From positions 22,213 through 86,212 of IMG/VR virus record IMGVR_UViG_3300021957_000014: a stretch of 64,000 nt of DNA; one strand, given 5' to 3'. The position numbers and the translations under genes were made by a program. The notes beneath the pieces are model-generated. The model ran no database searches and was not told the DNA's origin. It saw only the letters and a program-made list of their open reading frames with translations. Numbering within the stretch: position 1 is the first letter of the stretch; every line of letters begins with the position of its first letter. Positions 11,621-62,849 of the stretch are shown here, one piece after another. The stretch comes from a virus (lineage: Duplodnaviria; Caudoviricetes).

Positions 11621-11628
11621 CATAAATA
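11621..11628 (+). promoter_or_regulatory. Late promoter CATAAATA upstream of gp2
   Basis: One mismatch to TATAAATA, 5 nt before ATG 11634. Confidence 0.7.
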
Positions 11629-16936: not shown

Positions 16937-17182
16937 TCAACCTAACGGCCCTCTGAATCCACGTCTACCCATTGATGCTCTCTTAGCATCTAACTTCTTA
17001 CGTCTTTTTAGTTGTTGGTTCTTTTCGTTTTTGATAGTGTTAGGTTTGATATGATACTTCCTATCCCTACACTCTTGAACTATATTTGCCCTTTCACATT
17101 CCTTTTTGAATCTGCGAAGTAGTTGGTCGAACCCTTCTACGTTCCGATTCTTTGGATTTATTTTTGGTGTTACACTTGGCAT
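16937..17182 (-). CDS. rpsU: Ribosomal protein bS21
   Basis: MPSV...EGFDQLLRRFKKECERANIVQECRDRKYHIKP followed by a basic tail matches the S21 signature. Confidence 0.9.
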   Translation of the reverse strand: MPSVTPKINPKNRNVEGFDQLLRRFKKECERANIVQECRDRKYHIKPNTIKNEKNQQLKRRKKLDAKRASMGRRGFRGPLG

Positions 17183-25060: not shown

Positions 25061-25068
25061 TATTTATA
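25061..25068 (-). promoter_or_regulatory. Late promoter TATAAATA
   Basis: Exact consensus 5 nt before ATG 25055. Confidence 0.8.
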
Positions 25069-25660
25069 ACGAATCAGTGTGTAAATGATAGTAAACTTCC
25101 TTTAAAGTTTCCTTGTCACTCTGCACGTCTTGGTAGTTTGCATGTGCTTGTAGTGTCACGTCTGCAATCTCATAGTCGGGATAGGACGTAATCAGTTTGT
25201 AGATAAGTCCAGCAACGTCTTGGTGTTTGACACTAGGTAGATTCTCATCGTTGAGAAGACCTAAATTGATTGTGGTCATTTTATATCTCTTCTTAGAATT
25301 GTATTGTAGATTATTTGCAAGGTGATTGAGTTGTGCTTTCTCTGATGCGTAAACAAATCCTTTTGAAATATTCGGCTGGGCTGCTCGACTTGAGATATTG
25401 ATAATAGTCTTAGACTTGTCTGTCTCCCATGCCTTATGTGCAATCGATAGAATCTTAGATTGGTCTACATGTGCAAGATTGATTAGAACATCACAAGGTC
25501 TATGACCGCTGCTGAATAACCAGCAGTTAGTTCCATTCATTGTAATGTCTTCACAACGAATTGTGTCTACTGTAATAACCTCTCCTTGAAAGGGTGTTGC
25601 TTCTAGTGTGTCTTTGATTGTCTTTGCAAGACCACTACTTCCTGTTATTGCTACTCTCAT
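25064..25660 (-). CDS. Short-chain dehydrogenase/reductase-like protein
   Basis: VAITGSSGLA Rossmann motif, DVLINLA, IINISS and catalytic YASEK (YxxxK). Confidence 0.8.
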   Translation of the reverse strand: MRVAITGSSGLAKTIKDTLEATPFQGEVITVDTIRCEDITMNGTNCWLFSSGHRPCDVLINLAHVDQSKILSIAHKAWETDKSKTIINISSRAAQPNISKGFVYASEKAQLNHLANNLQYNSKKRYKMTTINLGLLNDENLPSVKHQDVAGLIYKLITSYPDYEIADVTLQAHANYQDVQSDKETLKEVYYHLHTDSL

Positions 25661-26633
25661 AATATTCACTCACTATGTCGAAAGATTGCTTGCCGAACAA
25701 GCTGCCATCGACACTGCACTTGTTACAGGGGGACATAGACCTGTCACCCTTCATTAATTTCTTTCTAATCTTATTCATAGGTTTAGAGAACCATACATTA
25801 TGTAGGGTCTCTGATAACAAGTTGCCTACAACATGTTCTCTACCCCAGTCATTGGAACAGAATAAAACATCACCATTCCAATCAACAAACATTTTATAAA
25901 AAGGATAATGACACGGTTTACCTTGTAACGCTTCAATTGTACTCTCCTCAATTCCTACCCAATCCATTACACCACTTCTATTGTTTAGTATCAATCCATG
26001 ATTTGCCATGTCACCCCAATGCATACGATACTTGTATTTCGTTTCGGGAATCGTTTTCATTATCTTATCGAAGTGTTCCATCTGTTCGATACCATCATAT
26101 AGATTGATGTAGAGTAAATCCAATCCACTAAATTCGAATAACTCTTCTGCATATTCTCTAGTGAGTTTATCTCCGTTCGTGTTGCATTCTATTGTTGCAT
26201 AAGGAACTGCTGACCTAAAGGTATGAACGATTTCTCTGAACCTTGGGTTAAGTAGATTCTCTCCGTATCCACTTAAAGATATCTTCCCTCTAAATCCATT
26301 CTTATGTAATTCATCTCCAATGGTCTTTGCAGCCTTGGGAGTCATATGTAAATTTCTATTTGGGAATACTTCGGGATTTGCACGTGGACAAAATGAACAT
26401 GTCCTGTTGCATAACTCTGTAGTGTTAACTTCAACTGTAAGAATAGAACTGAGTTCATTCAGTTGGTCTTGTCGACTCCAATGTTTCTCTTCCTGTTCTC
26501 TACGATGTTCTAGAAAGTCGTATTGGTCTACTGCTTTAATCGGTATGTTACGTATCGACACGCCTGCACCTAATGTGTCTTTCTTCTCCATCCAAAACCT
26601 GTTCTTGGTAAGAAAACTCGATTGTGTCGCCAA
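25635..26633 (-). CDS. Radical SAM protein with SPASM/twitch domain (true start probably near 26560-26590)
   Basis: CNRTCSFC (CxxxCxxC), SGYGE.LL, NTNG, C..PF....VDWNGDV.FC..D, GNL and terminal C..C. Confidence 0.9.
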   Translation of the reverse strand: MATQSSFLTKNRFWMEKKDTLGAGVSIRNIPIKAVDQYDFLEHRREQEEKHWSRQDQLNELSSILTVEVNTTELCNRTCSFCPRANPEVFPNRNLHMTPKAAKTIGDELHKNGFRGKISLSGYGENLLNPRFREIVHTFRSAVPYATIECNTNGDKLTREYAEELFEFSGLDLLYINLYDGIEQMEHFDKIMKTIPETKYKYRMHWGDMANHGLILNNRSGVMDWVGIEESTIEALQGKPCHYPFYKMFVDWNGDVLFCSNDWGREHVVGNLLSETLHNVWFSKPMNKIRKKLMKGDRSMSPCNKCSVDGSLFGKQSFDIVSEYYESSNNRK

Positions 26634-27048
26634 TGTCGATTACTCCTTCAGTAAAGTATTGTGGTATGATAAAAAACTGTGCTGATTTGTCTTCTGAAAT
26701 CATACAACTTTGTGGGTCACCATGTCTATTATAAAGATATGGTCTAATGTGTAATCCGTCTGTTTGCCTGTCGTGTGCTGAGAAAATTAACTCACCATCT
26801 TCAAGATAGAGATTTACAAAGGGGGTATCGTATTGGATTCCTAAGCGGATTGTATATTCAAGGGGAAAGTTTAAACGTAGAACGTCATCTTCAATATCGT
26901 GAAAACGTTCTACGTATCTGTGACTTACTTTGTCTAATTCAAGGGGTAGTACTTCTGATTCCTTAGAAGTAACCACCGTCTCGCACAGTATCATTGTCAT
27001 TATCATTTCCTTCATCACTGTCGACTGCTGATACGAATGACCCATCAT
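26548..27048 (-). CDS. Hypothetical protein (true start probably near 26970)
   Basis: Fills the gap between the acidic protein and the radical SAM gene. Confidence 0.5.
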   Translation of the reverse strand: MMGHSYQQSTVMKEMIMTMILCETVVTSKESEVLPLELDKVSHRYVERFHDIEDDVLRLNFPLEYTIRLGIQYDTPFVNLYLEDGELIFSAHDRQTDGLHIRPYLYNRHGDPQSCMISEDKSAQFFIIPQYFTEGVIDIGDTIEFSYQEQVLDGEERHIRCRRVDT

Positions 27049-28450
27049 CCTGTAGTGATTGTATTAATTCATCTGTTTGGTCTTGAAATGATTCAATCAA
27101 TTGTGCTTTTGTTTGAGACTTATCAAGTGTAAAGTTTAAATCCGTTCCAGCTTTAATAATAGCACTCTTAGTCATTGCATCTAATTCTGCACTAGACGGA
27201 ATTGTAATTTCGTCATATACTTCTTCTTCTTCAATGTCTGTTTGTGCATCAATCTTTGCTTGTGCAGCTGCAAGTAATTCTTCTTCACTATCATATGAAG
27301 GGATTGTCTTTTCAGCTGGTGCCTTTACTGAGTCACCTGTCTGTAGAGTTTCTGCTCTTGGTTTAAAATTACCACCAGTGATTACTGGTTTTGCTAAGGA
27401 CGATTCAGTTCTAGTATCTTCTTCCTGTACTGAGAACTCTGAACCTAATGGTTCTACTTCGTCTGATACTTCAAACCCTTGGTCTTCTTCAATCTCTTGT
27501 CTGAATGCCTGTTTGGTTTCTTCTACCCTTGCATTGAAATCTGCATCGGTTGAGATTGCTTCATCCCACTCTTCGGGTGTTGCATCATTGATTGATTTGT
27601 AGGACTCATCCGTAATCACTTCGTCAGCAAATGCAACTTCGTTAACTCTATCAACTTCATCAAAGAAAGACTCGGTTGTATTCCCTTGTGGTTGATATCT
27701 TGTATCAGACTGTGGTGTATCTAAAGGAACGAAAGGTTCGACTTCTGTCGGGTCAACAAATGTTGTTTCATTTACTTCTACGTCTGTTCCAACATCAACT
27801 GTATCTTCTGTAGCAGGATTCATTGCACGTGCAAGACCCATGTTACCTGTTGCCTTACTAGGTTTTGCTAGAGGGGTTTGTTGTACAGGTGCTGGTTGTG
27901 GAATTTCGTATCCATGTTTCTTGGCAAGTATTGCGACTTCGTCAGCAGACATTTCAACAAAACCATCTTTGTTTAATGTACCTTGTTTAACACCGATAAC
28001 TCCGTCACCGTTTAAGTCAACACCAATCCCATGTGATGCAAGAACAGCTTCAAGTTGTGCAATCTTATTGTTTGCTTCTTTCCTTGCAATCCTTTCGTCT
28101 GCAAGTCTTTGCTGTTGTTCTTGTTGTGATTTTTCAAATGCCTGTGCCTTTGCAAGTTGGTCAGCAGCGATAAGTTCTTGAGACCTACGTTGTGCATTCT
28201 CGACAATCTGATTGTACTCTGCTAATCCAGCAGCGTATTCTTCGGTTACAGTATGCAATGGTACAAGTTCACCTTGGGTGACCTTACCACTTTGTAGATG
28301 TGATTGAATCAGTGCATTAACAACCCCAGCACTGTTGACGGTAAATCCTACTTTGTAGTCAGCAATTCTTTGTTGAATTCTTTCTAACTCTGTAGGTTCG
28401 GGTTTTTCTTGTGCAAACTGTGACACAGTTTGATTTTCATTTGTTGCCAT
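26963..28450 (-). CDS. Large acidic, partly disordered protein with coiled coil, DLNGDG loop and C-terminal Rho-N/HeH-like motif
   Basis: Q/E coiled coil, VDLNGDGVIG, a long D/E-rich region and LDAMTKSAI...LDKSQTKAQLIE. Confidence 0.6.
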   Translation of the reverse strand: MATNENQTVSQFAQEKPEPTELERIQQRIADYKVGFTVNSAGVVNALIQSHLQSGKVTQGELVPLHTVTEEYAAGLAEYNQIVENAQRRSQELIAADQLAKAQAFEKSQQEQQQRLADERIARKEANNKIAQLEAVLASHGIGVDLNGDGVIGVKQGTLNKDGFVEMSADEVAILAKKHGYEIPQPAPVQQTPLAKPSKATGNMGLARAMNPATEDTVDVGTDVEVNETTFVDPTEVEPFVPLDTPQSDTRYQPQGNTTESFFDEVDRVNEVAFADEVITDESYKSINDATPEEWDEAISTDADFNARVEETKQAFRQEIEEDQGFEVSDEVEPLGSEFSVQEEDTRTESSLAKPVITGGNFKPRAETLQTGDSVKAPAEKTIPSYDSEEELLAAAQAKIDAQTDIEEEEVYDEITIPSSAELDAMTKSAIIKAGTDLNFTLDKSQTKAQLIESFQDQTDELIQSLQDDGSFVSAVDSDEGNDNDNDTVRDGGYF

Positions 28451-28498
28451 AATTTAGGTTTCTCCATGGAGCAGAACTAGACTAGAAAGTTGTTTACT

Positions 28499-28518
28499 GA
28501 AGTTGATATATCAACTTC
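28499..28518. repeat. Perfect 20-bp palindrome GAAGTTGATATATCAACTTC
   Basis: Self-complementary. Lies in the leader between a CTAAATA late-like promoter (about 28554-28560) and ATG 28450. Confidence 0.85.
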
Positions 28519-28560
28519 CCTTTTTAATATGTATAGTCTCGGTCTACTGTAATTATTTAG

Positions 28561-29076
28561 TTAACAATTAATCTCGGGAAAGGCTTCTTTCACGATATTT
28601 GCTGTGATATTTGGGAATGCCCAAGTACCGTCTTTAACGAGGTCAAGCAGTTCTGCTTCTTCTTTAGGGATGCCTTCAAGAAGACCAATCCACATTGCCT
28701 CTCTCTTAGTTGCAGAGATTTGTTCCGTAACAAAATACTGGAACAACCTATGTTCAAATCTAAGTGATGTTTCTGTTAAATCAGAGCTAGGTGCTGAGTT
28801 CTCTCTGTAAGGTGTTTTGCCTTCGGGTAAGACGGTTGTAATATTCTCATCGAATTGCCACTGCAATACTTTCTTAACTCCACCGTTAGTTTCATTGAAT
28901 ACTTTCAATCCGTTAACTGCTTTTGCTGAATCAGTCTCAGCAACGATATTTGCTTGACATAGTATTTCATATACGTCTGCATTTTTCTGAAGCTTTACTC
29001 TTTCGGTAATCAACTTCATTTTAGGTTTATTGGGAGCTCCCTTCGGTCTTCCTCTTCCTCTTTTTTTCTCGGTCAT
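28561..29076 (-). CDS. Conserved T4-like hypothetical protein (RNase H-linked) with N-terminal AT-hook
   Basis: KKRGRGRPK, LPEG..PY and KRE.M.I.LLEG....EAELL..KD. Confidence 0.7.
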   Translation of the reverse strand: MTEKKRGRGRPKGAPNKPKMKLITERVKLQKNADVYEILCQANIVAETDSAKAVNGLKVFNETNGGVKKVLQWQFDENITTVLPEGKTPYRENSAPSSDLTETSLRFEHRLFQYFVTEQISATKREAMWIGLLEGIPKEEAELLDLVKDGTWAFPNITANIVKEAFPEINC

Positions 29077-29915
29077 AATGTAAAATCCTCTACATGGTTT
29101 AACAACTGGTCTAGTCGATGTGTTCTTAAATAATCAAAGACTTTACCCTTTACTGGTGCTGTCTTTTCAAACTCATCTAATATATTCTTTTCTATATCAG
29201 TTGGTATAAACTCTAAATCAATTAGAGTTTGGTTTCTTAAATAGTTACGATAGTATTTATCGTCACTCTCAATTGTAATTCTTAAGTACTTATCTTTGAC
29301 AGGCTTCCTTAAAGGTGTTTGTCTAATACCTAAGTCCAAGCAATCATCATTAGATAGAATGTTTGGAACTCCGTCTGACTTATCACCAGTAAGAATATGT
29401 TCTCTCAAAAATAAATCGGGGTCTTCAACTGTAATAAGTTTATTAAGGTTGGGACTCCATTGAGTTACGTACTTGTATTTATGGAGTTGCTGAAAGTCTT
29501 TATCTCCACTTACTATCATGACCTTCTCTCCGAAGGGTGCATGTTTAGTTAACACTGCAATGATATCATCAGCTTCACACTTCTCGACATACATATAACG
29601 GTATGGAAAGTTCTCTTTGATTTCCATCTTCACCTTATGAAGTGTATCAAATATTAATCCCCAGTCTTTGTTATCTGCTTCTCTAGACTTCTTACGATTT
29701 GCTTTGTACTGTGGGAAGTAGTCTCGTCTCCATGGATGTGATGCATCCGTACAAAGAGTAATCTCTCCATACTCTGCAGCGTACTTCCTTTGATATCCTC
29801 GAACTGAATTGAGAATCATGTGTCTTAACATGTCCTCACTTACTTCTCCGTTGTTCATTTTTAGTTGAACCATTAAACCAGCAATGATGGTTTGTGTAAA
29901 GTCTATTAGAATCAT
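29073..29915 (-). CDS. rnh: T4 RNase H / 5'-3' flap exonuclease
   Basis: MILIDF.Q, WRRDYFPQYKANRKK, EADDIIA, SGDKDF.QL, GDKSDGVPN, RN..LIDL. Confidence 0.95.
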   Translation of the reverse strand: MILIDFTQTIIAGLMVQLKMNNGEVSEDMLRHMILNSVRGYQRKYAAEYGEITLCTDASHPWRRDYFPQYKANRKKSREADNKDWGLIFDTLHKVKMEIKENFPYRYMYVEKCEADDIIAVLTKHAPFGEKVMIVSGDKDFQQLHKYKYVTQWSPNLNKLITVEDPDLFLREHILTGDKSDGVPNILSNDDCLDLGIRQTPLRKPVKDKYLRITIESDDKYYRNYLRNQTLIDLEFIPTDIEKNILDEFEKTAPVKGKVFDYLRTHRLDQLLNHVEDFTL

Positions 29916-30625
29916 TTTACCACTTTCAATAATAATGTATTTTTGGTAATCAAGTCGTTTCCGTCTTTCAACTTCGACCTAGGAATCTCATCCATAAATC
30001 CACGAGCAATAATATTACCACCTGTTACTAGTCTATCAAGCAACTTGTAATCTGTCAAGGTCTTTTCTTTACATGAGTCATACCCAGTAATTCTAGAACC
30101 TTTGACTGCAAGATGTCCACTGAAGTGTGTAAACTTTTTAGATGCAGTATTGTATGTGAACAAGTCTAATGCTCTTGGTATCTCTTCCTTGTCTATAGAC
30201 TTGTAACCTTCCCACTCTTCTAAGAACGGAAGCTTCCTTACCATTCTCTTAGGGGTCATAGGTCTGACCTTACGAACTGGTTTGTACTCGTCACAATACT
30301 TATCGATATCGGATTCGATACCCTCTAAGAATTTGATGTAGTTTTTCTTTTGTGTTTTAGTGAGAAAGTTAAAGGCCTCTTCTAATTGTTCACAACCTTC
30401 TTTGTTCTTAACTTCGAGTTGTGCTTGAAGTGTTTTACCTTTCATGAAGGTAATTACTTTAGAACTATAATCTAGTTGCTTAAGATATTTGTACATTGAG
30501 AAGGAGCTCTTCTTATCGTCCATAAAGGAATCGATTTGGAACTCAACTTCATCATAGGCATCGATTGCTTTCTCACGCATTCGGTCTTGGATATTTATTT
30601 TTTTGGGTTCAGTTTTCATAATCAT
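29912..30625 (-). CDS. Conserved T4-like hypothetical protein
   Basis: Start re-called 6 nt after the -10 box. NIQDRM, YNT..K, VKGS.I.GYD...KTL. Confidence 0.65.
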   Translation of the reverse strand: MIMKTEPKKINIQDRMREKAIDAYDEVEFQIDSFMDDKKSSFSMYKYLKQLDYSSKVITFMKGKTLQAQLEVKNKEGCEQLEEAFNFLTKTQKKNYIKFLEGIESDIDKYCDEYKPVRKVRPMTPKRMVRKLPFLEEWEGYKSIDKEEIPRALDLFTYNTASKKFTHFSGHLAVKGSRITGYDSCKEKTLTDYKLLDRLVTGGNIIARGFMDEIPRSKLKDGNDLITKNTLLLKVVK

Positions 30626-30631
30626 GTGAGC

Positions 30632-30661
30632 AGTATATAATAAAGCCAGGGGCGTTGTCAA
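30632..30661 (-). promoter_or_regulatory. Early promoter, 18-bp-spacer class
   Basis: TTGACA-N18-TATACT-N6-ATG. Confidence 0.75.
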
Positions 30662-30674
30662 GTTGATTTATAAA

Positions 30675-32057
30675 TTAACTATCATCCCTTTCATCACGTT
30701 TGTTTGTAATCATGAACTTACGTGCTGGGTTTATCATTAAGTTTGCACGTTGCATCAAGTCACGGTTCGCAAGAAACGGTATTGCACCTCTAGTATCTAA
30801 ACTAACTTCTTGTTCGTATATAGTGTTTAGGAAATTTAACTCAAGTTCTACGACTGGTCTGTCTTCAGCTGGTTTCAATAAAGTAACCATTCTCTTTAAT
30901 GGTTTCTTATACTTAACACCCTCTGTTGTCCATGTAACTATCTTACCCTTGACCTTTAAATCTTCTGCATGAAGTGAACAAGCTGAAACTGAATTACCTG
31001 TATCTAACTTCACTGTCATCTCTTGACCTTCAATCTCTATGGTTTCTAATACACCACACTCTGTTGGTGACTTCTTCCATATGTCTCGGTCTTTGTAAAT
31101 CTTAAGAACCATCTTAACAATGTCCTCACCGATAACACTAGAGATTCCTTCAGTGCCTGGCGAATGATTTACTTCCAATAGGTATGGTGGTTCGGTCTTT
31201 CTGTTTTTGCTAGGAATAAAGTCGACACCACACCATTGTCCGTTGACGGCTTTGCTAGCTCTTAGACAAATATCTTTTTCCATCTCTGTCAATGTAACTG
31301 ATTGTGCATCTGCACCTTGGGATACATTACTTCTGAAATCATCTGTAATTTTGTTTCGTCTCATTGCACCAACGATTTCTCTGTTGACAATGACTACACG
31401 TACATCGTAATCTGATTCGATATACTCTTGTAATAGAATATCACAGTAAGGGTCAATCTTATAAATCAAGCTGACCTGTGATTGTAATGAACGTTCTGTT
31501 TCGATTAATAGAACACCCACACCTTTAGAACCCTGTAATGTTTTAAGTATCATCGGGAAGTTATTATCTAATGCTTCGTGAGCTCTATCTACAGTCTCGG
31601 GTTCATCGTTTGGAATCAATACGGTACGTGGTTGGTTTAGACCTATCTCTTGCAGTCTCAGATACGTTCTAAACTTGTCTGAACAAACTTCGATACATTC
31701 CCTAGGGTTACACGTTGCAATGCCGTAGCGTTCAATCTGAGAGATTAAATCGAGGTAGGAATCTTTAGTGTTTACTGCACCACGAATCATAACTAATGTG
31801 TCTGCATCAATCTCGAATCCTTTCTCATCGTCTGCATTGTGAATAGTAATCTCACCACTATCCTCATCACGTTCTAAGTATGCACCATTGATACGCACGT
31901 TGTAAACATCCATGCCCATCTTCTCTGCAACACTAACTATCTTACCACTGGTAGATTTCTTTGATTGTTTCTTAGGACGTTCTGCAAGAACGACAAGGCG
32001 ATAGGGGTCGGACTTCTTAATGTCTTCTTCGACTATTAATTCTTGAAATGATTTCAT
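30675..32057 (-). CDS. rimK: RimK-family ATP-grasp ligase fused to a RimB-like (retropepsin-fold, DTG) protease
   Basis: DKFRTY, P.T, FPMILK...GSKGVGV, LLQEYI..DVRV, FRSNVSQG, GVDFI and LEVN.SPG. C-terminal KLDTGN....LHA..., RPVV and L.NR..M. Confidence 0.88.
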   Translation of the reverse strand: MKSFQELIVEEDIKKSDPYRLVVLAERPKKQSKKSTSGKIVSVAEKMGMDVYNVRINGAYLERDEDSGEITIHNADDEKGFEIDADTLVMIRGAVNTKDSYLDLISQIERYGIATCNPRECIEVCSDKFRTYLRLQEIGLNQPRTVLIPNDEPETVDRAHEALDNNFPMILKTLQGSKGVGVLLIETERSLQSQVSLIYKIDPYCDILLQEYIESDYDVRVVIVNREIVGAMRRNKITDDFRSNVSQGADAQSVTLTEMEKDICLRASKAVNGQWCGVDFIPSKNRKTEPPYLLEVNHSPGTEGISSVIGEDIVKMVLKIYKDRDIWKKSPTECGVLETIEIEGQEMTVKLDTGNSVSACSLHAEDLKVKGKIVTWTTEGVKYKKPLKRMVTLLKPAEDRPVVELELNFLNTIYEQEVSLDTRGAIPFLANRDLMQRANLMINPARKFMITNKRDERDDS

Positions 32058-32434
32058 TTCTTTAATCCCACCTGTATGGCTTGTTCTTCTAATGGGGTTA
32101 ATGGTTTCTTATGCAACTCTACAAAGTATTCTGCATCCACCAACACCAATGGTTTACTTCTATTTCTTTTAATCACAACAATGGGTTCGTACTTACCACA
32201 ATTGCTTTCTGCTTGTGTATATGCATTCCACACGTTAACTGCTTCTTGGTTCTTGCACTCTACACTGTATGGAAATAATCTTCGGGACTCTGTACCTAGG
32301 ATGATGTCCTCGCCTTGAGAACCCATAGGTCTTGATTCAGAATCTTCGGGGTCTAAGTCTAACTTCTCTACAAGTAAGTCCCTAAACCACTGTTGTAGTT
32401 TACGACCTTTAGCTTTTGCTGATGATGTCTTCAT
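32054..32434 (-). CDS. Holliday-junction-resolvase-like PD-(D/E)XK endonuclease
   Basis: SAKAKGR.LQQW, SRPMG..GEDI, SVECKNQE, P.VVIKRNR. Confidence 0.7.
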   Translation of the reverse strand: MKTSSAKAKGRKLQQWFRDLLVEKLDLDPEDSESRPMGSQGEDIILGTESRRLFPYSVECKNQEAVNVWNAYTQAESNCGKYEPIVVIKRNRSKPLVLVDAEYFVELHKKPLTPLEEQAIQVGLKK

Positions 32435-32735
32435 TAAATTTTATACTCACTCCACAACCACAACTGGCTTCTTCATTTGGATTCTGAAACGTAAATGTTT
32501 CATTCAATCCTTGTTTCTCATAATCTAGTGTCATTCCATTTAAAAAAGGTTGACTCATTGTATCTATTAAAAATTTAAAGTTACCGTAATCTAATTCTAA
32601 ATCACCGTCTCTGAATTCATCTTCTACAAAAACATATTCATAACCACTGCAACCACCACCAGTAACACCCATTCTAACTGAGTCTACTTTCTTCTCTATA
32701 AGCTTTGCAATTGCAATGTCTGTGACTTCTATCAT
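32409..32735 (-). CDS. iscA: HesB/IscA-family Fe-S cluster carrier
   Basis: GGGCSG.EY, LDY, F.NPN...SCGCG.S. Confidence 0.93.
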   Translation of the reverse strand: MIEVTDIAIAKLIEKKVDSVRMGVTGGGCSGYEYVFVEDEFRDGDLELDYGNFKFLIDTMSQPFLNGMTLDYEKQGLNETFTFQNPNEEASCGCGVSIKFNEDIISKS

Positions 32736-32741
32736 AAGAAG

Positions 32742-32749
32742 TATTTATA
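32742..32749 (-). promoter_or_regulatory. Late promoter TATAAATA heading iscA-endonuclease-rimK
   Basis: Exact consensus 6 nt before the iscA ATG. Confidence 0.8.
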
Positions 32750-33395
32750 CTTCTGACTCCCACACACCATCTTGTTCTGCATCATTTTTTAAATCTTTTG
32801 ATTTCTTAGGTCGAATTAATTCGTATGGAATACCATCTGGCTGGTCTTCGGGTACGTAAAGGAATCCAATGTCGGAACGATTACATGTGTCGACTGCATC
32901 AAAGATTGTTTCCACTAGAGCTTCTCCACCTAAATTAAATGAAGTATTAAATATAATGGGGGTGCCATTCTTTTCACCCAAGGCTTTAATTAAATTGTAA
33001 TAATTTTTATTCTGCTCTTGAGTAACAGTTTGAATACGACATGTTCCGTCTGCATGAACGATAGCAGGAATCTCTTTGTATGCTTTCTCTTTGCATTGAA
33101 TTGCAAACGACATATAAGGTGACTCTTCTAACTGCAACATCTCAAAATATTCATGTGCATGTTCTTTTAATACAGTACCAGCAAACGGTCTATAATATTC
33201 TCTCTTCTTAATTGTATTTACAATTTGCTTTGCATCGGGATTAGTAGGGTCAAATAAAATACTACGATTACCTAATGCACGTGGGCCCCATTCAGAACTA
33301 CCTTGGAACATTGCAACAACTTGTTTCTCTTCAACCAGTAATCTAATTACTTCGTCTTGGTCTCTAATGATTTCTAATATTCTATTCTTACTCAC
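32745..33395 (-). CDS. Carbamoyltransferase (CmcH/NodU) C-terminal domain, stand-alone
   Basis: FQG.SEWGPRALGNRSIL, KKREYYRPFA, SPYM, H.DGTCRIQTV, NTSFNL.GE. GTG start re-called at 33395 behind GAGG. Confidence 0.9.
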   Translation of the reverse strand: MSKNRILEIIRDQDEVIRLLVEEKQVVAMFQGSSEWGPRALGNRSILFDPTNPDAKQIVNTIKKREYYRPFAGTVLKEHAHEYFEMLQLEESPYMSFAIQCKEKAYKEIPAIVHADGTCRIQTVTQEQNKNYYNLIKALGEKNGTPIIFNTSFNLGGEALVETIFDAVDTCNRSDIGFLYVPEDQPDGIPYELIRPKKSKDLKNDAEQDGVWESEV

Positions 33396-34656
33396 TGTCT
33401 GTTTCCTCTGTTGTTGCTTCTTCCTTGTATGGATGGACTGGTGCTTCTGCACTATCTAAGACTCCTTCCTTTACTGGTTCGAAGTATTCGTTTTCTAAAT
33501 GATAATGTAACCAAAATGCAGCTCCAACTGCAGTACCACCATCATGGGGTACAGGGTCAACGAATATATTTAATTCGGGAAACTCTTGTAGGTATCTGTA
33601 ATTGTTTGTACAGTTTAATGAGAAGCCACCACTGAGAACTAAGTTCTTACAGTCGGGATTTAATTCTACTGCACGTCTGATAACATTACATGCATTCTTA
33701 AATGATTCTTCCTCACACATCTGTGCAACGATATGTCTATCAAACCTATCGGGTCTGTCTTCGTATAGTCTTCCGTATGATGCCATACCCATGACTTTAC
33801 CCGCTGCACGTCCATGAATGTCTGCACCGAAGGCATAACTCATGTTACTGAAGTTCATACCGCTAGAAGGGAAGCTAGTGAACGTAACAGGCAGTCCATC
33901 AATCTCTGTCTCTAAGTCTGTGAGACAATGAGCTGAGTCGTAGTACATGTTAGGAAAGAACGTATTGGATACGTCACCTAACATACGGTGATTAGACATC
34001 TTCTTCCACTGGGGAACAATAGTCTTAGTGTCAAAGTCACACTTCCAAATAGATTCAATCTCTTGATAGTTCGGATGTGTTTCATGATAACACTTAGCAC
34101 CACCACCATCCCATGCAATAGCCATTGCATCCTCACCCTTGTCAAAGAAAGGACTGAGATAATATCCACTGTATGCATGATACATGTGATGTTCTGTGTC
34201 AAAGTGATACTGGTCTACATCAAAGAACTGTTTACACATCTCATCATGAATGGTTTCATCCATTTCTTCGTGCCAGTCTTGTTTGAGTCCCACTTTGGGA
34301 TAGGCTTTAATTAATTCTTGGATTCTTGCTTCGGTTAATTGTTCCTTTGCAAGTTCATCTGCAAACTCTTGTGCAATGAGACGATTATCCATAAGATAAT
34401 CTAAGTCCATTTCAAGTTTCATGTCACGTCTATCGAACGATGCAAAGATTAACTCTCCCTTTACATTGCCTTCATCGTCTACCAATGAGTCTGCAAGACC
34501 TTTAGAGTCGATTACATGTAGGTGGGGGGACTCTAAAGTCGGTGAATAATACTTATCACGTCTTTCTCTTTCTTCTTCGAAGAGTTCTACGACTTCTCCG
34601 TCTTCCATAATACATAAACTGGTATCATGGCTGGAATTAATTCCAATTATTCTCAT
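33388..34656 (-). CDS. Carbamoyltransferase (CmcH/NodU) N-terminal Kae1-like domain, stand-alone
   Basis: IIGIN.SHDTS, EEER..R.K, HH..HA, WDGGG, GKVMGMASYG, SGG..LNC..N, P.P.DGGTAVGA. Confidence 0.9.
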   Translation of the reverse strand: MRIIGINSSHDTSLCIMEDGEVVELFEEERERRDKYYSPTLESPHLHVIDSKGLADSLVDDEGNVKGELIFASFDRRDMKLEMDLDYLMDNRLIAQEFADELAKEQLTEARIQELIKAYPKVGLKQDWHEEMDETIHDEMCKQFFDVDQYHFDTEHHMYHAYSGYYLSPFFDKGEDAMAIAWDGGGAKCYHETHPNYQEIESIWKCDFDTKTIVPQWKKMSNHRMLGDVSNTFFPNMYYDSAHCLTDLETEIDGLPVTFTSFPSSGMNFSNMSYAFGADIHGRAAGKVMGMASYGRLYEDRPDRFDRHIVAQMCEEESFKNACNVIRRAVELNPDCKNLVLSGGFSLNCTNNYRYLQEFPELNIFVDPVPHDGGTAVGAAFWLHYHLENEYFEPVKEGVLDSAEAPVHPYKEEATTEETDSE

Positions 34657-37455: not shown

Positions 37456-38094
37456 ATGATACCCTTTGAATTATATTCCATATCCCCTTCTATCAACGAT
37501 TACGGACACATATACTCCATACCTAACTACTACACCCCCTCTGAGATGTCTTCTGTACAGTCTCAAATACAGTCTCATATGGACAAAGCATCCTATAACT
37601 CAGTACCCTTAGAAGCATGGCCGTCTCTACGTGTTGACCTATTTGATAACAAACAACCATTCGTTTCTGAGAAGTCTCAATGGTTATTAGATAATTGGTC
37701 TGAGATACATGAGTTGACCTATACGGATGATATAGAGTACTTTAGGAATGGGTCATGTGTACCCGAACATGTACAAGAGTCTGCACGTGGTACTGGTGGT
37801 GGTAATCGTTTGTATCCCTCTCATAATGATAGAGGTGCTTTGAAGTTATTGACTATTCTAGTTCCTCTCGTTGATGTTGGATGTCCTACTCGCTTTCATG
37901 GTCGTAAGGAAAATTCTCAGCTCGAGTCTCGTGTATGGTGTCACGAATGGGCGTTGAATAATGCGTATATGTTTAGACCTTCTGAGAGGTCATATCATTC
38001 GTATCAGAATACCATGGGTATTGATAGGTGGATTAGTAATATTAATTTGTGTGGTCGACTTGAGAATGGTCAACAAGTCAATGATGGGTATTAG
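37456..38094 (+). CDS. 2OG-Fe(II) oxygenase-fold protein
   Basis: HND (HxD), KLLTILV, N.AYMF, SYHSY and a distal R. Only + strand gene between 16.7 and 64 kb. Confidence 0.65.
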   Translation: MIPFELYSISPSINDYGHIYSIPNYYTPSEMSSVQSQIQSHMDKASYNSVPLEAWPSLRVDLFDNKQPFVSEKSQWLLDNWSEIHELTYTDDIEYFRNGSCVPEHVQESARGTGGGNRLYPSHNDRGALKLLTILVPLVDVGCPTRFHGRKENSQLESRVWCHEWALNNAYMFRPSERSYHSYQNTMGIDRWISNINLCGRLENGQQVNDGY

Positions 38095-38804
38095 TCTCTA
38101 CTGACTTCTATATGGAGAAAGTTACGTAGCCCTTCCACGTGGTTGTATACTTCTTTGGATTCTAGGGATGTATTCGTGAAGTGTCCGTCTAGGTGTATGT
38201 CGAATGCTTGAGACATTCTAGGCTCCTGTCTCGTGTTAGAGTCTACGGAATGCACGATGAGTGGACTGAATAGATGCAAGTCACCTCTGATATTCTCTAC
38301 CCAACCTTTGCCTTGATAGTAAGTACCGTATTCTCTATGGTCGTTATCACTAAGGAATACATTACCGCTAATCATGTGTTGTCTACAATCGTCTTCTGCG
38401 TGTTTATGTTCTTGAATAGTTACCCATTCGTATTGTCCTGTCTGTTCCATATCCATCGCTGCATGTCGATGGGGTTTAATGCCTTCTCCTTTGTCCCATA
38501 GGTTGCACCATGATTTTATAAACACATCGTTCACGTCTCGTGTGTCTATCTGTTCCATGATTCTTTGTACTAGGTTGATACCTAGGTTGTCTTCTATGAG
38601 GGGTATCCAGTTGAAGGTTGAATGGAGTGCGGTGAGTCCTGTGTATCCATTCGAATCAGCCCATACAGACGAATCGGGAGAATGCTCCCGAATTAAGTCG
38701 TCTGAATGTTCTGAAATAAGTTCACAGATTGAATTGCATTCTTGGTCTGTATAGAACTTGGGGATGACTATGTGATAGTCTTCGGATTGTCTTATAGAAC
38801 CCAT
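38091..38804 (-). CDS. 2OG-Fe(II) oxygenase (HxH type, TIGR02466-like)
   Basis: SWCN...GE.IKPHRH, ISGNVFL, GDL.LF....HSV, RMSQAFD. Confidence 0.75.
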   Translation of the reverse strand: MGSIRQSEDYHIVIPKFYTDQECNSICELISEHSDDLIREHSPDSSVWADSNGYTGLTALHSTFNWIPLIEDNLGINLVQRIMEQIDTRDVNDVFIKSWCNLWDKGEGIKPHRHAAMDMEQTGQYEWVTIQEHKHAEDDCRQHMISGNVFLSDNDHREYGTYYQGKGWVENIRGDLHLFSPLIVHSVDSNTRQEPRMSQAFDIHLDGHFTNTSLESKEVYNHVEGLRNFLHIEVSRD

Positions 38805-41388: not shown

Positions 41389-42018
41389 TTACGTCTGAGC
41401 GTAATGTATATTTCCAGCTACCGATATCCTTTCACCTTGTGGGTCATGGAATGGGTAGACGGAATGATTCAACCACGATGGGAAGATTAGTATATCTCCT
41501 TTCTCGGGGTAATGATGCATGGAAGTCCAGTTCATAAACTGAGTCTCTCCATAATGCAAGTCTATATGACCCGCAAGTGCTTTTGATTCACTAGTTATAT
41601 TTCTGTCGAACATATTGTCCGTAGCATCTTCTCTAGTGATTGTGTTTTTGGTATAGAATACAAAACTAAACATACCATCATGTGCATGGATAGGATTGTA
41701 TTCAAATTCTTTCTGAAGGTTAACCCAAAGGCCCTCTATTTGCAGCTGTTCTGTATAGATTTCCATACCAATACTCTGGGCCCATGTCACTGCATGGTCT
41801 AGAATGTGGGTCTTTGTAGTGTCTGACACTACATCTTCGATGGTTATCTGTTCTTCTACTCTGCCTGCTAGTAAATCAGCACCTATTTTGGATTTAGGGT
41901 CACCTCTGCGTGATTCGATAATATCGTTCACATCATTGATGATATCCTCATCCAACTTACCGACCCATACTGGTGGGCCGAAAGGTGAAATGATTTCACC
42001 TTGGGGTCTAGTTTTCAT
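41389..42018 (-). CDS. 2OG-Fe(II) oxygenase (TIGR02466-like)
   Basis: WVN.Q...EYNP.H.H, SFVFY, P..GD..IFPSWL.H.VYPF, RIS.AGN. Confidence 0.88.
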   Translation of the reverse strand: MKTRPQGEIISPFGPPVWVGKLDEDIINDVNDIIESRRGDPKSKIGADLLAGRVEEQITIEDVVSDTTKTHILDHAVTWAQSIGMEIYTEQLQIEGLWVNLQKEFEYNPIHAHDGMFSFVFYTKNTITREDATDNMFDRNITSESKALAGHIDLHYGETQFMNWTSMHHYPEKGDILIFPSWLNHSVYPFHDPQGERISVAGNIHYAQT

Positions 42019-42244: not shown

Positions 42245-42401
42245 TTTGCTCCTTGGTTCGGGGTTTATGTTTAACATGCCAGTCGTGACTACAATATGCA
42301 TCACAAAAAACATGCACTGGTTTTTGATTAGTTGGTGTGTGGTATTTTACTTGGTTCACGTCTAGTTCTTTTTTACACTCACTACATTTAATCTTGTTCA
42401 T
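42228..42401 (-). CDS. Small zinc-finger protein (CxxC...FCxxxC, TRASH/MYM-like)
   Basis: Start re-called at MNKIKCSEC. VFCDAYCS. Confidence 0.6.
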   Translation of the reverse strand: MNKIKCSECKKELDVNQVKYHTPTNQKPVHVFCDAYCSHDWHVKHKPRTKEQNADKI

Positions 42402-43029
42402 CGAAGTCTTCCTCTTCGTTATGTTGTTTGAACCATATCGCAAAGACGTATCTCTCTCCACTGAATATAGGTTCTACACCATGCCACCTTTCGGTGGAAT
42501 TGTTGAATGCAACCATGGTACCCTGTCTTGGTAGTATCGTATGTCCTTCGACATTCAATCTACCCCCTTCGTATGTATCATTCAACATAAAGATAGCGGT
42601 TCCTGTATCATCTTGGTCTGCTTCATCTTTATGCCATTGGAACATTGTATCCGTTGGATACCTCATTATCGTAGCATAGGTTATCTCTCCAAAATCAGCT
42701 GATTTGGGTAGATATGCTTCAACTAAGTCCATGACTTCTTCGAATGGTGCAGTACCTTGTTGTAGTACAGCAACATCGTGACCTGTCTGTGGGTGGTCAT
42801 ATCTCCATGACCTTTCCATGACTTGTACGTTGTCAGCACATATCTGACCATTATCCTTTTGATGCACAGAAGTTGTCTCTAATCTGTCCATAGTACTAAT
42901 TATAACATCACATGTGTCTTGAGTCAAGACACTATCTGCAATCATTAGTAAGTTAGAAGACTTGTTCTCATATAGATGAGCTTCATCTTTCTGTTCTTGA
43001 CTCTGAACTACTATTTTTCTTACTGGCAT
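42388..43029 (-). CDS. 2OG-Fe(II) oxygenase, prolyl-4-hydroxylase-like
   Basis: RY....FQWHKD, LNDTYEGG.L, WHGVEPI..GERY...W. Confidence 0.9.
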   Translation of the reverse strand: MPVRKIVVQSQEQKDEAHLYENKSSNLLMIADSVLTQDTCDVIISTMDRLETTSVHQKDNGQICADNVQVMERSWRYDHPQTGHDVAVLQQGTAPFEEVMDLVEAYLPKSADFGEITYATIMRYPTDTMFQWHKDEADQDDTGTAIFMLNDTYEGGRLNVEGHTILPRQGTMVAFNNSTERWHGVEPIFSGERYVFAIWFKQHNEEEDFDEQD

Positions 43030-43892: not shown

Positions 43893-44648
43893 TTATTTCC
43901 TTTCAAAAACATGACTGTACGACATGTTGTCACCAGTGTGATTGCTGTTGAATTGTTCTCTTAGTTTAAGGTTGAATGATAATGAATATCTTGGGTTTTT
44001 GCTTTGTGATTCCATAGAGGGTGGAACAGCATGCATCAGATAAGACGGCCAAAGTAGGAAATCGCCAGCTCTTGGATAGAACTGCATATCAGAATGAAAT
44101 CCAGTACATCCAGTGAATGACATATCAGGCTTATCATTATCGTGTCTTAAATCCTCAACTCCATTGTGACCATAAACAGCTGCCATGTTTGGATTCCAAA
44201 ACTTGATTGGTCTATCCGTATCATTGACATAGTATGTACCACTCATATGTGAATCTACGTGATTGTGTATTTCGTGTTGATGCTCTGAGTCATATCTGTT
44301 GACCCATGCAAACAGATGTATATCATCTCTGCAATACTGTCTAATGTCTCTATTGAATTGTGTTTTAACAAACTCGATGTAGGTGTCTTTGATGATGTTA
44401 GAGAAATCTCTGAACCATCCTAACTTGTGTGTTTCTTCCCTTACATCATTATCAAAATATGACGTGTAGTTGCACAACTTATTTTTGTCGTCCATGTCTT
44501 TAACTTTATCGACTATTCGGTCAATATCACGCATCACCATAGATGATGGAAAGTCTAACTCACCCCTCAAGAATGGAGTTGAAAACATAGGTATCACCCT
44601 ATGTCGTGCTGGTTGAAACTTCTGTTGGTCGTGTTTCGCTGGTTTCAT
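43893..44648 (-). CDS. 2OG-Fe(II) oxygenase (TIGR02466-like)
   Basis: FSTP, WVN.Y....H..HNH..S.MSGTYYV, P..GD.LLWPSYL.H.V, RYSLSFN. Confidence 0.88.
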   Translation of the reverse strand: MKPAKHDQQKFQPARHRVIPMFSTPFLRGELDFPSSMVMRDIDRIVDKVKDMDDKNKLCNYTSYFDNDVREETHKLGWFRDFSNIIKDTYIEFVKTQFNRDIRQYCRDDIHLFAWVNRYDSEHQHEIHNHVDSHMSGTYYVNDTDRPIKFWNPNMAAVYGHNGVEDLRHDNDKPDMSFTGCTGFHSDMQFYPRAGDFLLWPSYLMHAVPPSMESQSKNPRYSLSFNLKLREQFNSNHTGDNMSYSHVFERK

Positions 44649-45717: not shown

Positions 45718-45977
45718 TAATCTATCTCCTCTATTTTTACTTCAAGTCCTAGAACTGAACGTATCTCTACAATGTTCTTTGTTTCGTAGTCTTTGAATTT
45801 TAAATGTTTCGGTTTATTTACCATGATACTTCTTGATACATATTCCGACTTGTACATATTACCACCTTCCGATTGTCGGTAGATTGTAATCTTGTATTCT
45901 GCTTTGAATAGGGATTTCAGCCATTCCCAAATGACCCATACCCCTCTACGCATGAATACTCCTATCTTTTTAAGCAT
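45717..45977 (-). CDS. Hypothetical protein
   Basis: Coupled ORF with an amphipathic N-terminus. Confidence 0.55.
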   Translation of the reverse strand: MLKKIGVFMRRGVWVIWEWLKSLFKAEYKITIYRQSEGGNMYKSEYVSRSIMVNKPKHLKFKDYETKNIVEIRSVLGLEVKIEEID

Positions 45978-46596
45978 AGTCTATCCATCCTGTTATTATT
46001 TTCTTCTCTCCCTTCAATGGTGGGTTACCTCTATGCATATGCGTAAAACCAGCAGGCCACAATACAATGTCACCTCTCTTTGGTTTGATACGTAATGATT
46101 GGTATAGGAATTCTAACTCACCCCCCTCTTCCACGTCATTTAGGAAGATTGCCCAGGCCAGTAGGGATTTACTGCTTGATGGACAATTACAATGTTCACA
46201 ATGCCAGACATGATATCCTTGTTGTGGTAATGTCTTTTGGATTTTTGCACCACTGACCATAAGACCCCTGTAGTTGTCTCGGACTGGGTACTTGTCAAAC
46301 CAGTTATCAATTACACCATTTTGGTCTTCGAAGATTTCTAGTAATTGATTCATCTGACCACCGAAATATGATTCGGGTACTGAAGTGATGCTGATTGCAT
46401 CGTCTGATTTGGATGTAATGATTTGTGTATCGTAGGACTTTCTTGGTAGTGTTAAGCCACGGTCTTCACACTTCTGATATATCTCTAAGACATAGTCAAT
46501 AAACGCATCCGTGGTGAATCCTTCATATAACAGAACATGTTCACCCAAGTCTGTTATCTCTCTTTCTTGTCGTTGTTGTTGTATTTCTCGTCTCAT
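45970..46596 (-). CDS. 2OG-Fe(II) oxygenase (cyanophage P4H-like, HxE)
   Basis: KIQKT.P..GYHVWHCE, LNDVEEGGE.EFLYQ, WPA.FTH.HRGNPPL..EK.I.TGW. Confidence 0.92.
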   Translation of the reverse strand: MRREIQQQRQEREITDLGEHVLLYEGFTTDAFIDYVLEIYQKCEDRGLTLPRKSYDTQIITSKSDDAISITSVPESYFGGQMNQLLEIFEDQNGVIDNWFDKYPVRDNYRGLMVSGAKIQKTLPQQGYHVWHCEHCNCPSSSKSLLAWAIFLNDVEEGGELEFLYQSLRIKPKRGDIVLWPAGFTHMHRGNPPLKGEKKIITGWIDYA

Positions 46597-48409: not shown

Positions 48410-49021
48410 TTAAAATCCCGTTATTCTTGTTAAATGTTTAAACTCCACACACTTATCACATTCTCCACATTGATTTGGATATCCCAAAGAACATGAATTG
48501 ACTAGTGTTCTGATTTCTGACGGTATTGAGTTCCACTGATTTAACTTAGTCTGACCACCTAATGGTGGGTAGAGTCTGTAGTTGTGATTCTTATTCATCA
48601 ATCTCGCATAGAACTCAAACACCATTTGGAATTCCCATGCACGTGGTACCCACGGCCAATCAGAATGGTGTTTATGGTCATCAGCATAATTTATCATTCC
48701 ACTGTTGACACCCCAATAGTATTCCTCTATATGTGGGAACTGAGTCAACGCACTTAAGCATGCGACTGACCAGTGTCGTGCAGAATGAAAGTATTCTTCT
48801 GACCTTTCTTCATGGTCATATTTAGGATGCTTATGAGTAATCAAATCTACATCTAATATGTCACAGATTTCTGCAATATTACTATGTAGTTGATTTGCTG
48901 TCGTGATAGGGTTGTCCCATAGTGAATGCAGGGCAATAGGTTTCTTACCTTTCTCTACACACCAGTTCAATAATGCAGTGGATTCAACTCCACCACTAAA
49001 CATAACAACACAATCGTGCAT
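48410..49021 (-). CDS. QueC-like PP-loop ATPase
   Basis: VVMFSGGVEST PP-loop, P.....K and a C-terminal SC......CGECDKC Zn site. Confidence 0.72.
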   Translation of the reverse strand: MHDCVVMFSGGVESTALLNWCVEKGKKPIALHSLWDNPITTANQLHSNIAEICDILDVDLITHKHPKYDHEERSEEYFHSARHWSVACLSALTQFPHIEEYYWGVNSGMINYADDHKHHSDWPWVPRAWEFQMVFEFYARLMNKNHNYRLYPPLGGQTKLNQWNSIPSEIRTLVNSCSLGYPNQCGECDKCVEFKHLTRITGF

Positions 49022-55362: not shown

Positions 55363-55393
55363 TGATTTCTCCAAGAAATATTTATACTTTTAT

Positions 55394-57866: not shown

Positions 57867-58265
57867 TTAAACCAATGAACCGTATACTTTATAGCTGTTG
57901 TTCATCAATCTCTCATATTTCACTTTGAGTGAAATTATTTTTTCTTCTTTTTCAAACTCATCGATAGGGGTATCGACTGTCTTCCCGAAAGTCTCACCAT
58001 ATTGAGAAAATGAAAGGTCAAACTCACCACTTTCATTGAACTCCATGTCATCATATTGCTTACATGATAGTCCTACGTGAGAAAGTTTTGCCTTCATTTG
58101 TTCTACTGCAGCTTGTGGGTTCATGTATTCTGAACTAGCACAATGTCCTAGTACTGCATTAATTTTTGCTTTCACAGATGAATCATCAATGTCGTATGGG
58201 GCATGCTCATCGCCAGGCCAAGCATTGAATTGCTGTTCTGCCATGAATTGATTGAATTTTTTCAT
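57867..58265 (-). CDS. Probable internal head protein (capsid-targeting-like N-terminus)
   Basis: MKKFNQFMAE resembles the T4 internal-protein CTS MKTYQEFIAE. Confidence 0.6.
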   Translation of the reverse strand: MKKFNQFMAEQQFNAWPGDEHAPYDIDDSSVKAKINAVLGHCASSEYMNPQAAVEQMKAKLSHVGLSCKQYDDMEFNESGEFDLSFSQYGETFGKTVDTPIDEFEKEEKIISLKVKYERLMNNSYKVYGSLV

Positions 58266-62553: not shown

Positions 62554-62561
62554 AGTCTTAT

Positions 62562-62849
62562 TTATGTAATTCGTATCCTAACAACAAGATTTCCTTGTCC
62601 TTTTAACAACCTGTGGTAGGTCATTTTGGGGATATAATACTCTTCTCCTTGGTTTAATTGTATGGGTAACTCATCATCGTGCTGTAGTTGCCACCCAGTT
62701 CCACTTAGAACATTGACCACCCTTGATTCTTTATCACGGTGCCATACTAGTTCTTCATTTTCGACACTTTCTGTGAACTCTCTGATAACATATGGTACAC
62801 CTGTACCATGTTGTTCTTCTATTCGTTCTGTGTATGGTTTAGTCGTCAA
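62562..62849 (-). CDS. Cupin-fold small protein
   Basis: ELVWHRD...R.V....GW.LQ.D.ELP, IPK..YHRL.KG. TTG start re-called. Confidence 0.7.
   Translation of the reverse strand: MTTKPYTERIEEQHGTGVPYVIREFTESVENEELVWHRDKESRVVNVLSGTGWQLQHDDELPIQLNQGEEYYIPKMTYHRLLKGQGNLVVRIRIT

Follow-up and report, generated by a model that had tools for sequence, protein, structure and literature searches.

Where would a phage enzyme act that joins a RimK-like ligase to a RimB-like protease in one chain? The question is raised by an open reading frame (ORF) in a 64,000-nucleotide stretch of tailed-phage DNA (positions 22,213 to 86,212 of the IMG/VR record IMGVR_UViG_3300021957_000014), referred to here as the window. 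The product of this ORF, the RimK-RimB protein, is composed of a leader, a linker, a ligase domain and a RimB-like protease domain (Table 1). The evidence set out below gives a probability of roughly 0.6 to 0.7 that the protein is a cargo enzyme which is packaged in the phage head and trimmed by a gp21-type protease; packaging, cleavage, injection and substrate are all inferred from sequence. The initial annotation had proposed a possible virion-delivered enzyme that could edit host ribosomes or another target. Its domain architecture, its leader resembling a T4-type capsid-targeting sequence (CTS) and its late-type promoter were retained, while its proposed target, the ribosomal protein bS6, was not.

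The virus contig from which the window is taken measures 86,212 bp and has a CheckV completeness of 47%. PHROG scans of 86 ORFs identified the contig as a T4-like marine myovirus with baseplate and tail genes, gp32, gp59, RNase H, primase and ribonucleotide reductase, and many 2-oxoglutarate (2OG)-Fe(II) oxygenases and bS21 were also among the matches. The closest cultured relatives were the Pelagibacter phages Mosig and HTVC008M and the Methylophilales phage Melnitz, all Kyanoviridae. A megablast search of phage records using 12 kb around the RimK-RimB gene gave zero matches.

Sequence and conservation of the N-terminal leader

The ORF starts MKSFQELIVEE, and residues 1–18 are additional to those of the structurally solved RimKs. 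An AlphaFold2 model calculated on 54 homologs gave a mean predicted local distance difference test (pLDDT) score of 88.4 and a predicted template modelling (pTM) score of 0.80. The pLDDT fell below 50 at residues 5–15 and the fold began at residue 20, so that the leader is predicted to be disordered. A start of the form x-F-x-[ED]-hydrophobic was seen in 117 of the 120 closest homologs (65–98% identity, list read by eye), the other three being different or truncated. In a diverse set of 53 full-length homologs, with identities as low as 25%, 36 aligned without gaps over residues 2–11. Several full-length homologs lack the leader and start directly at β-strand 1. The comparison of phage with cellular proteins that had been proposed for this motif gave no leader in the cellular RimK loci scored (70, all Campylobacterota), where all 70 proteins start at β-strand 1 and the best profile score was 0.3, and none in the two RimK-only proteins of cyanophages S-RIM8 and S-CAM8, which scored -20.6 and -27.9.

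The information content of the homolog N-termini peaked at residue 4 (3.3 bits, Phe), residue 10 (3.5 bits, Glu), residue 7 (2.2 bits, Phe/Tyr/Leu) and residue 8 (2.2 bits, Leu/Ile/Val). In the CTS of the T4 internal protein IPIII, suppressor genetics assigned residues 4 and 7 to targeting and residues 8 and 10 to processing, according to the section cited (PMC9026906, section 2.6), and both IPII and IPIII start MKTYQEFIAE in the T4 record. Because the four peaks coincide with the positions that are critical in T4, the N-terminus was read as a leader resembling a T4-type CTS. The assignment of the leader as a T4-type capsid-targeting-like sequence is well supported by this position-specific conservation, by the cross-recognition of T4 internal proteins and by the agreement with the S-CREM2 virion proteome, both described in the following section.

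Recognition of the leader in related phages and in virions

A 10-column profile was constructed from RimK-RimB family N-termini only, with the protein of the window excluded. The scan covered four genomes of marine phages (the window contig, HTVC008M, Melnitz and Mosig), with 763 ORF N-termini and 147,554 internal positions. Scores of at least 12 bits were obtained for 5 of the N-termini compared to 7 of the internal positions (Fisher p 2.7e-9, or 2.2e-7 without the RimK of the window). The matches other than RimK were the window ORF at 57867 and three Melnitz proteins. The regular expression MK.[FY].[EQ][FLM] was matched by 3 of 123 contig ORFs, each time at residue 1 and never internally. 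When the profile was applied to T4, IPII and IPIII each scored 15.7 bits, exceeding the maximum of 14.3 bits among the internal marine positions, and the first four ranks among 282 T4 ORFs were taken by gp61.1, IPIII, IPII and IPI; the chance of finding the three internal proteins in the top four is 1.1e-6. By this profile, the best CTS-like N-terminus in T4 (21.5 bits) is that of gp61.1, a 54-residue hypothetical protein (NC_000866, 18966-19130).

Virion proteins of a related marine phage were compared using the published proteome of S-CREM2, in which 52 proteins were detected by mass spectrometry in CsCl-purified virions (PMC10665884, Table 3). ORFs were called anew in this genome, giving 230, and 50 of the 52 table entries could be matched to them. 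The five top-scoring ORFs were all in the virion proteome against a background of 50/230 (p = 4.1e-4), as were all three ORFs scoring at least 8 bits (Fisher p = 0.0098). The top scorers include the cytidylyltransferase gp154 (18.3 bits), noted as a virion protein in its record, the "SAM hydrolase" ORF6 and ORF136. Leader-bearing proteins occur in purified virions of the related marine phage S-CREM2. The cytidylyltransferase belongs to cluster T4-GC 190, a label taken from the P-RSM4 record, and this cluster is listed as an experimentally determined virion protein cluster in the part of PMC3037559 that is cited here. A match between the leader and published virion proteomes was not found stated in the papers searched. 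Searches of titles and abstracts returned no virion RimK and, by title among the papers listed, no marine-phage paper on a capsid targeting sequence; the combination of capsid targeting and cyanophage returned a T4 review only.

The leader was also found on proteins unrelated to RimK. It is present on Melnitz genes 17 and 18, on the Melnitz ORFs at 12203 and 21306, and on the cyanophage cytidylyltransferases of S-N03, S-RIM2 and P-RSM4 (13.9–15.4 bits). Two further genes of the window, at 57867 and 63125, had been described as sharing similar N-termini; this held firmly for the former and weakly for the latter (Table 1). The C-terminal domain of the 63125 ORF is homologous to the last domain of Melnitz gene 18, a cytidylyltransferase-like multi-domain protein that itself has a strong leader. 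A leader-like start, MKTFAELQEG, was observed on a Zeta-toxin/AAA_33-type P-loop kinase of Melnitz (65855-66523) with a score of only 4.7 bits.

Late-type promoter and position of the gene

The RimK-RimB ORF had been described as the last of three coupled genes behind a late promoter. Three overlapping genes were confirmed, with overlaps of 26 nt between the first and second and 4 nt between the second and third. The plain TATAAATA sequence occurs 6 times in the window compared with 5.3 expected, which is chance level, so that only its placement relative to start codons is informative. The contig contains 26 ATAAATA sites. An ORF with the same orientation starts no more than 60 nt downstream of 13 of these (p = 2.6e-11), and in nine cases the site is at a fixed distance of 4–6 nt from the start codon (p = 5.7e-18). 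These nine include sites ahead of baseplate and tail-fibre-like genes, of the RimK-RimB operon and, as CATAAATA, of the run of genes whose last member is the 57867 ORF. This shared placement indicates that the operon uses the same NATAAATA class of element as the structural genes, and makes a late-type promoter ahead of the operon plausible. If transcription starts as at T4 late promoters, the 4–6 nt spacing suggests that the late mRNAs are leaderless or nearly so. Sigma-70 promoters and terminators gave no signal between 28 and 36 kb, where a scan found 29 of the former (24.9 expected) and 5 of the latter (4.4 expected).

The position of the gene in other phages bears on a different explanation, in which it is an ordinary intracellular auxiliary gene whose enzyme works in the infected cell, the N-terminal peptide serving oligomerisation, regulation or turnover and only resembling the T4 tag. 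The Mosig homolog, a complete fusion, and the Melnitz homolog, a ligase without the protease part, lie between regA and the DNA polymerase gene, in the replication module; the nearest late-type element in Mosig is 20 kb upstream of the RimK gene, and none was found in Melnitz. The cyanophage RimKs without a leader show phages using RimK as a cytoplasmic gene. The leader is moreover conserved throughout the RimK-RimB family itself, to about 30% identity, as would be expected of an intrinsic element, and being also a family feature it may have a family-specific role. An auxiliary function is nevertheless considered unlikely, given that unrelated proteins in this phage and its relatives carry the same leader, that the leader is predicted to be disordered and is missing from some full-length family members, and that the family profile retrieves internal proteins of T4 and virion proteins of S-CREM2.

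Along with the replication-module position, the family-wide conservation and the chance-level count of the promoter sequence, several other observations weigh against packaging in the head. Neither a head module with a scaffolding core nor a gp21-type protease is found on the 86-kb contig, whose completeness is 47%; the gp21-family protease (PF03420) was present in all five phages compared (Mosig, Melnitz, HTVC008M, YerA41 and S-CREM2). The S-CREM2 comparison is based on few ORFs and on ORF calls made for this work, and the 63125 ORF has a weak leader. In the YerA41 record the homolog is annotated as a "structural protein" from liquid chromatography-tandem mass spectrometry of particles. The value of this annotation is reduced by the length of the particle list, which has 63 proteins and includes polymerases in the part of PMC7354516 cited here; the record notes also flag ribonucleotide reductase as particle-borne, and the YerA41 homolog is without a leader (best profile score -3.9).

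The ligase domain and the RimB-like domain

The initial annotation had described a complete RimK ATP-grasp domain followed by a C-terminal KLDTG protease-like domain, and this architecture was borne out by Pfam and NCBIfam matches, by the conservation of the DTG motif and by the fold of the ligase. Residues 126–318 matched Pfam RimK (PF08443) with an E-value of 9.5e-35 and 120.3 bits, compared with a cut-off of 21, and the NCBIfam model of the RimK family (TIGR00768) was passed with 167.8 bits against 143.4. RimK was matched in all 54 full-length homologs. The predicted fold was compared using VIA-align over a Foldseek candidate list, with rows that span residues 16–329 only. Model residues 19–327 superposed on residues 1 to about 291 of the RimK crystal structures (7qys, 7qyr, 5zct, 5zk6 and 4iwx) with Z values of 29.6–30.9 and root-mean-square deviations of 2.4–2.8 Å over 286–289 aligned residues. 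Residues K128, K172, D279 and E295 are invariant in the 54 homologs and N297 is at least 90% conserved; these are presumably the nucleotide- and metal-binding residues.

The match of residues 340–451 to the RimB family (PF05618) was weak, with an E-value of 1.3e-4 and a score of 22.3 bits that is below the cut-off of 27. The same family was matched by 43 of the 54 homologs at E-values of 0.001 or lower, the best being 1.8e-19, and the retropepsin RloA3 model matched the C-terminal part with an E-value of 1.8e-6. The motif KLDTGN is present, and D352-T353-G354-N355 are at least 90% conserved among the 54 full-length homologs. On the basis of these matches the C-terminal 130 or so residues are RimB-like. 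As described in the passages cited from PMC11957791, RimB is a retropepsin-like DTG protease with a catalytic Asp, which strips polyglutamate tails and stimulates RimK. The same passages give a precedent for a writer and an eraser in one chain, the cellular RimBK hybrid of ligase and protease, in which the protease comes first. Two Campylobacterota contigs gave related arrangements: L081 encodes a 472-residue protein with a RimB-like part N-terminal to RimK, and L112 has a separate small RimB-like ORF adjoining rimK.

Acceptor of the ligase

The models that are specific for an acceptor all failed. The bS6-ligase equivalog (NF007764, RimK sensu stricto) gave 93.7 bits compared with a cut-off of 331, and the MptN, LysX and CofF equivalogs gave 141.1, 104.8 and 80.2 bits compared with cut-offs of 350, 275.6 and 300. 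ArgX and LysX were level with RimK when folds were compared, which means that the acceptor cannot be read from the fold. Taken together, the failed equivalogs and the tie restrict the assignment to a RimK-family α-L-glutamate ligase whose acceptor is not fixed. The ORFs of the four phage genomes were searched for an acidic C-terminus ending in Glu or a run of at least five Glu; none was found in the window contig, and four acidic Glu-ending C-termini were found in the three relatives. Glutamylation of Pseudomonas RpsF was not seen with the cellular RimBK hybrid in the experiments described in the cited part of PMC11957791. Since the bS6-ligase score is so far below its cut-off, the editing of ribosomes is treated here as hypothetical. 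bS6 is regarded as a doubtful target.

A packaged enzyme may instead have a non-ribosomal target and belong to a module with a leader-bearing cytidylyltransferase-like enzyme. Its acceptor would then be a LysW-type carrier, a cofactor or a nucleotide-linked compound, or its product would be poly-α-glutamate, made for example as a polyanion against host DNA-binding defences. A nucleotidyltransferase domain with the motif FGRFNPPTxGHE precedes RimK-RimB in at least 11 long homologs among the 150 cluster representatives listed, and a lone domain of this kind carries the leader in Melnitz and cyanophages and, more weakly, in HTVC008M (8.6 bits). Leader-like N-termini of the proteins with this domain range from strong to weak. 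The cytidylyltransferase-like domain is fused to DUF5824 in Melnitz and HTVC008M (loci L024:14914-16866 and L021:7721-9511); in Melnitz the domain of the 63125 ORF is joined to it as well. The nucleotidyltransferase-RimK-RimB fusions point to a shared pathway, which makes a non-ribosomal acceptor a serious alternative; the scores of the equivalogs, with MptN above the bS6 model, and the structural tie with ArgX and LysX also favour it. Free poly-α-glutamate is produced by RimK in vitro, according to the part of PMC10375531 cited here. The acceptor search returned no candidate in the window contig, and fusion to a RimB-type protease fits a protein target, polyglutamate tails on proteins being the only known RimB substrates given in the cited part of PMC11957791. 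A non-ribosomal target of a packaged enzyme is considered possible, although on the unlikely side.

The YerA41 locus (25508-34626) has, eight genes downstream of the RimK-RimB homolog, a gene whose annotation notes similarity to LysW, the carrier protein on which ArgX and LysX act. The DNA of YerA41 is T-modified (PMC9023294, in the part cited); a role in DNA hypermodification was considered and dropped, as nothing ties the ligase to DNA.

Proposed mechanism

Packaging in the head followed by delivery with the DNA would proceed as follows. The gene would be transcribed together with the two upstream genes from the late-type NATAAATA promoter, and residues 1–10 would act like a T4 CTS and attach the protein to the prohead scaffolding core. 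A gp21-type prohead protease would remove the leader after Glu10 (I-V-E|E), leaving a trimmed protein of about 51 kDa that would be kept in the DNA-filled head and enter the next host cell with the DNA. There the RimK-family domain may add α-linked glutamates to a protein C-terminus, with bS6 as the leading, unproven candidate, or may produce free poly-α-glutamate, and the fused RimB-like domain may trim such tails, stimulate the ligase as free RimB does for RimK, or both.

A packaged protein may also act before delivery, while still in the prohead or virion; acidic peptides derived from the scaffold are one conceivable substrate. Head maturation in T4 yields peptides that end in Glu, gp21 cutting after this residue, according to the cited part of PMC9026906. 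The ligase requires ATP and free glutamate and its role in a sealed head is hard to see; no result of this analysis supports an in-head role, and it is considered very improbable.

A more extended form of the proposal was also considered. The injected, trimmed enzyme would rewrite the polyglutamate tail of host bS6, or of another translation factor, before phage genes are expressed, and together with the phage bS21 would retune translation for late-type mRNAs that are leaderless and poor in Shine-Dalgarno sequences. The T4 CTS would then be a conserved address code of marine Kyanoviridae and pelagimyoviruses for a changing set of enzymes, including a nucleotidyltransferase, a kinase, a SAM hydrolase and a glutamate ligase. 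This combination is speculative and judged rather improbable as a whole. A bS21 gene (PF01165, E 5.1e-12; phrog_21469) was observed in the window as a second ribosome-related gene of the phage.

If packaging of the RimK-RimB protein is correct, the capsid-targeting code of T4 would be no peculiarity of coliphages, and a conserved loading signal of abundant ocean phages would be readable from sequence. The injected protein cargo of uncultured T4-like phages could then be predicted from genomes alone, and the recurrence of metabolic-looking enzymes in cyanophage virion proteomes would be explained. The protein would be the first virion-delivered enzyme that modifies protein tails, and would open very early takeover of the host at the ribosome to direct testing.

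Neighbouring genes

The positions of the features are given in Table 1. The N-terminal and C-terminal halves of a carbamoyltransferase were observed in two ORFs that overlap by 65 nt. The arrangement could be a genuine split of the gene or could result from a frameshift or a sequencing error; the stop codon of the C-terminal half is inside the TATAAATA element ahead of the operon. A radical SAM/SPASM protein, five 2OG-Fe(II) oxygenase-like ORFs and one QueC-like ORF were also observed, and suggest pathways for the modification of nucleic acids or metabolites.

Table 1. Features of the RimK-RimB locus and of the rest of the window
Feature	Position in window	Strand	Basis or remark
RimK-RimB ORF, 460 residues	30675..32057	(-)	leader, linker, RimK-family ligase and RimB-like protease
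CTS-like leader, residues 1-10, MKSFQELIVE	32028..32057	(-)	F4 and L7 at T4 targeting positions, I8 and E10 at T4 processing positions; putative cut after E10
Variable acidic/lysine-rich linker, residues 11-18, before β-strand 1	32004..32027	(-)	alignment; low information content
RimK-family ATP-grasp α-L-glutamate ligase, residues 19-328	31074..32003	(-)	TIGR00768; superposition on RimK crystals
RimB-like retropepsin-type aspartic protease domain, residues 329-456	30690..31073	(-)	PF05618; RloA3 model; DTG
D352-T353-G354 catalytic-type motif	30996..31004	(-)	conservation in 54 homologs
Operon gene 1, IscA-like Fe-S biogenesis protein, 108 residues	32409..32735	(-)	PF01521, 54.7 bits
Operon gene 2, PD-(D/E)XK / RusA-like nuclease, 126 residues	32054..32434	(-)	phrog_244, E 2e-20; PF24608, 24.6 bits, below cut-off
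TATAAATA late-type promoter element	32742..32749	(-)	ends 6 nt before the ATG (32735) of the Fe-S ORF, operon gene 1
CATAAATA late-type element	62559..62566	(-)	5 nt before the ATG at 62553; heads co-directional run ending with the 57867 ORF
NATAAATA sites 4-6 nt before a start codon	4479-4486(-), 25061-25068(-), 32742-32749(-), 55379-55386(-), 62559-62566(-), ~11621-11628(+)		more sites upstream in the contig
Unrelated ORF with leader MKKFNQFMAE, 132 residues	57867..58265	(-)	19.2 bits; start MKKFNQFMAEQ; HTVC008M homolog starts MKSFKDF
Unrelated ORF with weaker leader-like start MKTFHELAIHE, 178 residues	63125..63661	(-)	2.3 bits; Glu at residue 11, not 10
bS21 gene	16937-17182	(-)	
Carbamoyltransferase halves in two ORFs	32745-33452 and 33388-34656	(-)	
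Radical SAM/SPASM protein, five 2OG-Fe(II) oxygenase-like ORFs and one QueC-like ORF	25635-26633, 38091-38804, 41389-42018, 42388-43029, 43893-44648, 45970-46596, 48410-49021	(-)	
Metagenomic homologs of the nucleotidyltransferase domain network			P0151, P0162, P0165, P0169, P0175, P0203, P0207, P0227, P0234, P0236, P0240

Comparison with known systems

The closest parallel to the leader is the CTS of T4 IPI, IPII and IPIII, which is removed by gp21. Both are N-terminal peptides of 10 residues with an aromatic residue at position 4, hydrophobic residues at 7 and 8 and Glu at 10, both occur on proteins that are unrelated to one another, and the relatives of the phage described here encode a gp21-family protease. 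The putative cargo differs, being a 50-kDa two-domain enzyme rather than the small basic proteins of T4, as does the range, here marine pelagimyoviruses and cyanomyoviruses. The T4 protein Alt, an ADP-ribosyltransferase, is a precedent for an enzyme that is packaged in the head and delivered with the DNA. It has a different chemistry, a different targeting peptide and no homology to the RimK-RimB protein. Both termini of Alt are propeptides cut by gp21, as described in the cited part of PMC9026906.

The Pseudomonas RimABK system likewise has a RimK-family ATP-grasp ligase and a retropepsin-like DTG protease of PF05618, according to the passages cited from PMC11957791. In the phage the two are fused in one chain with a leader, and the score for the bS6-ligase equivalog is below its cut-off. 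The cellular RimBK hybrid of Desulfotalea psychrophila (DP2392), Flavobacteriales and Rhodobacterales also has ligase and protease on one polypeptide and is found mostly in marine organisms, as described in the same passages. The hybrid has no leader and places the protease before the ligase, whereas the RimK domain comes first in the phage protein. These opposite orders indicate that the fusions probably arose independently.

The "ribosomal protein S6 glutaminyl transferase" of cyanophages S-RIM8 and S-CAM8 (phrog_2599) is also a RimK-family ligase of T4-like marine phages, but has only 292–296 residues and neither a leader nor a protease domain. The core cytidylyltransferase of cyanophages (T4-GC 190; S-CREM2 gp154) has an enzyme fold unrelated to RimK-RimB, yet it carries the same leader (13.9–18.3 bits), has been detected in virions and is fused to RimK-RimB in some metagenomic homologs. 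The mechanism, consisting of a CTS, gp21 and injected enzymes such as Alt, is already known from T4; the novelty lies in the cargo, in how far the code extends into abundant marine phages and in an agreement with published virion proteomes that was not found stated in the papers searched.

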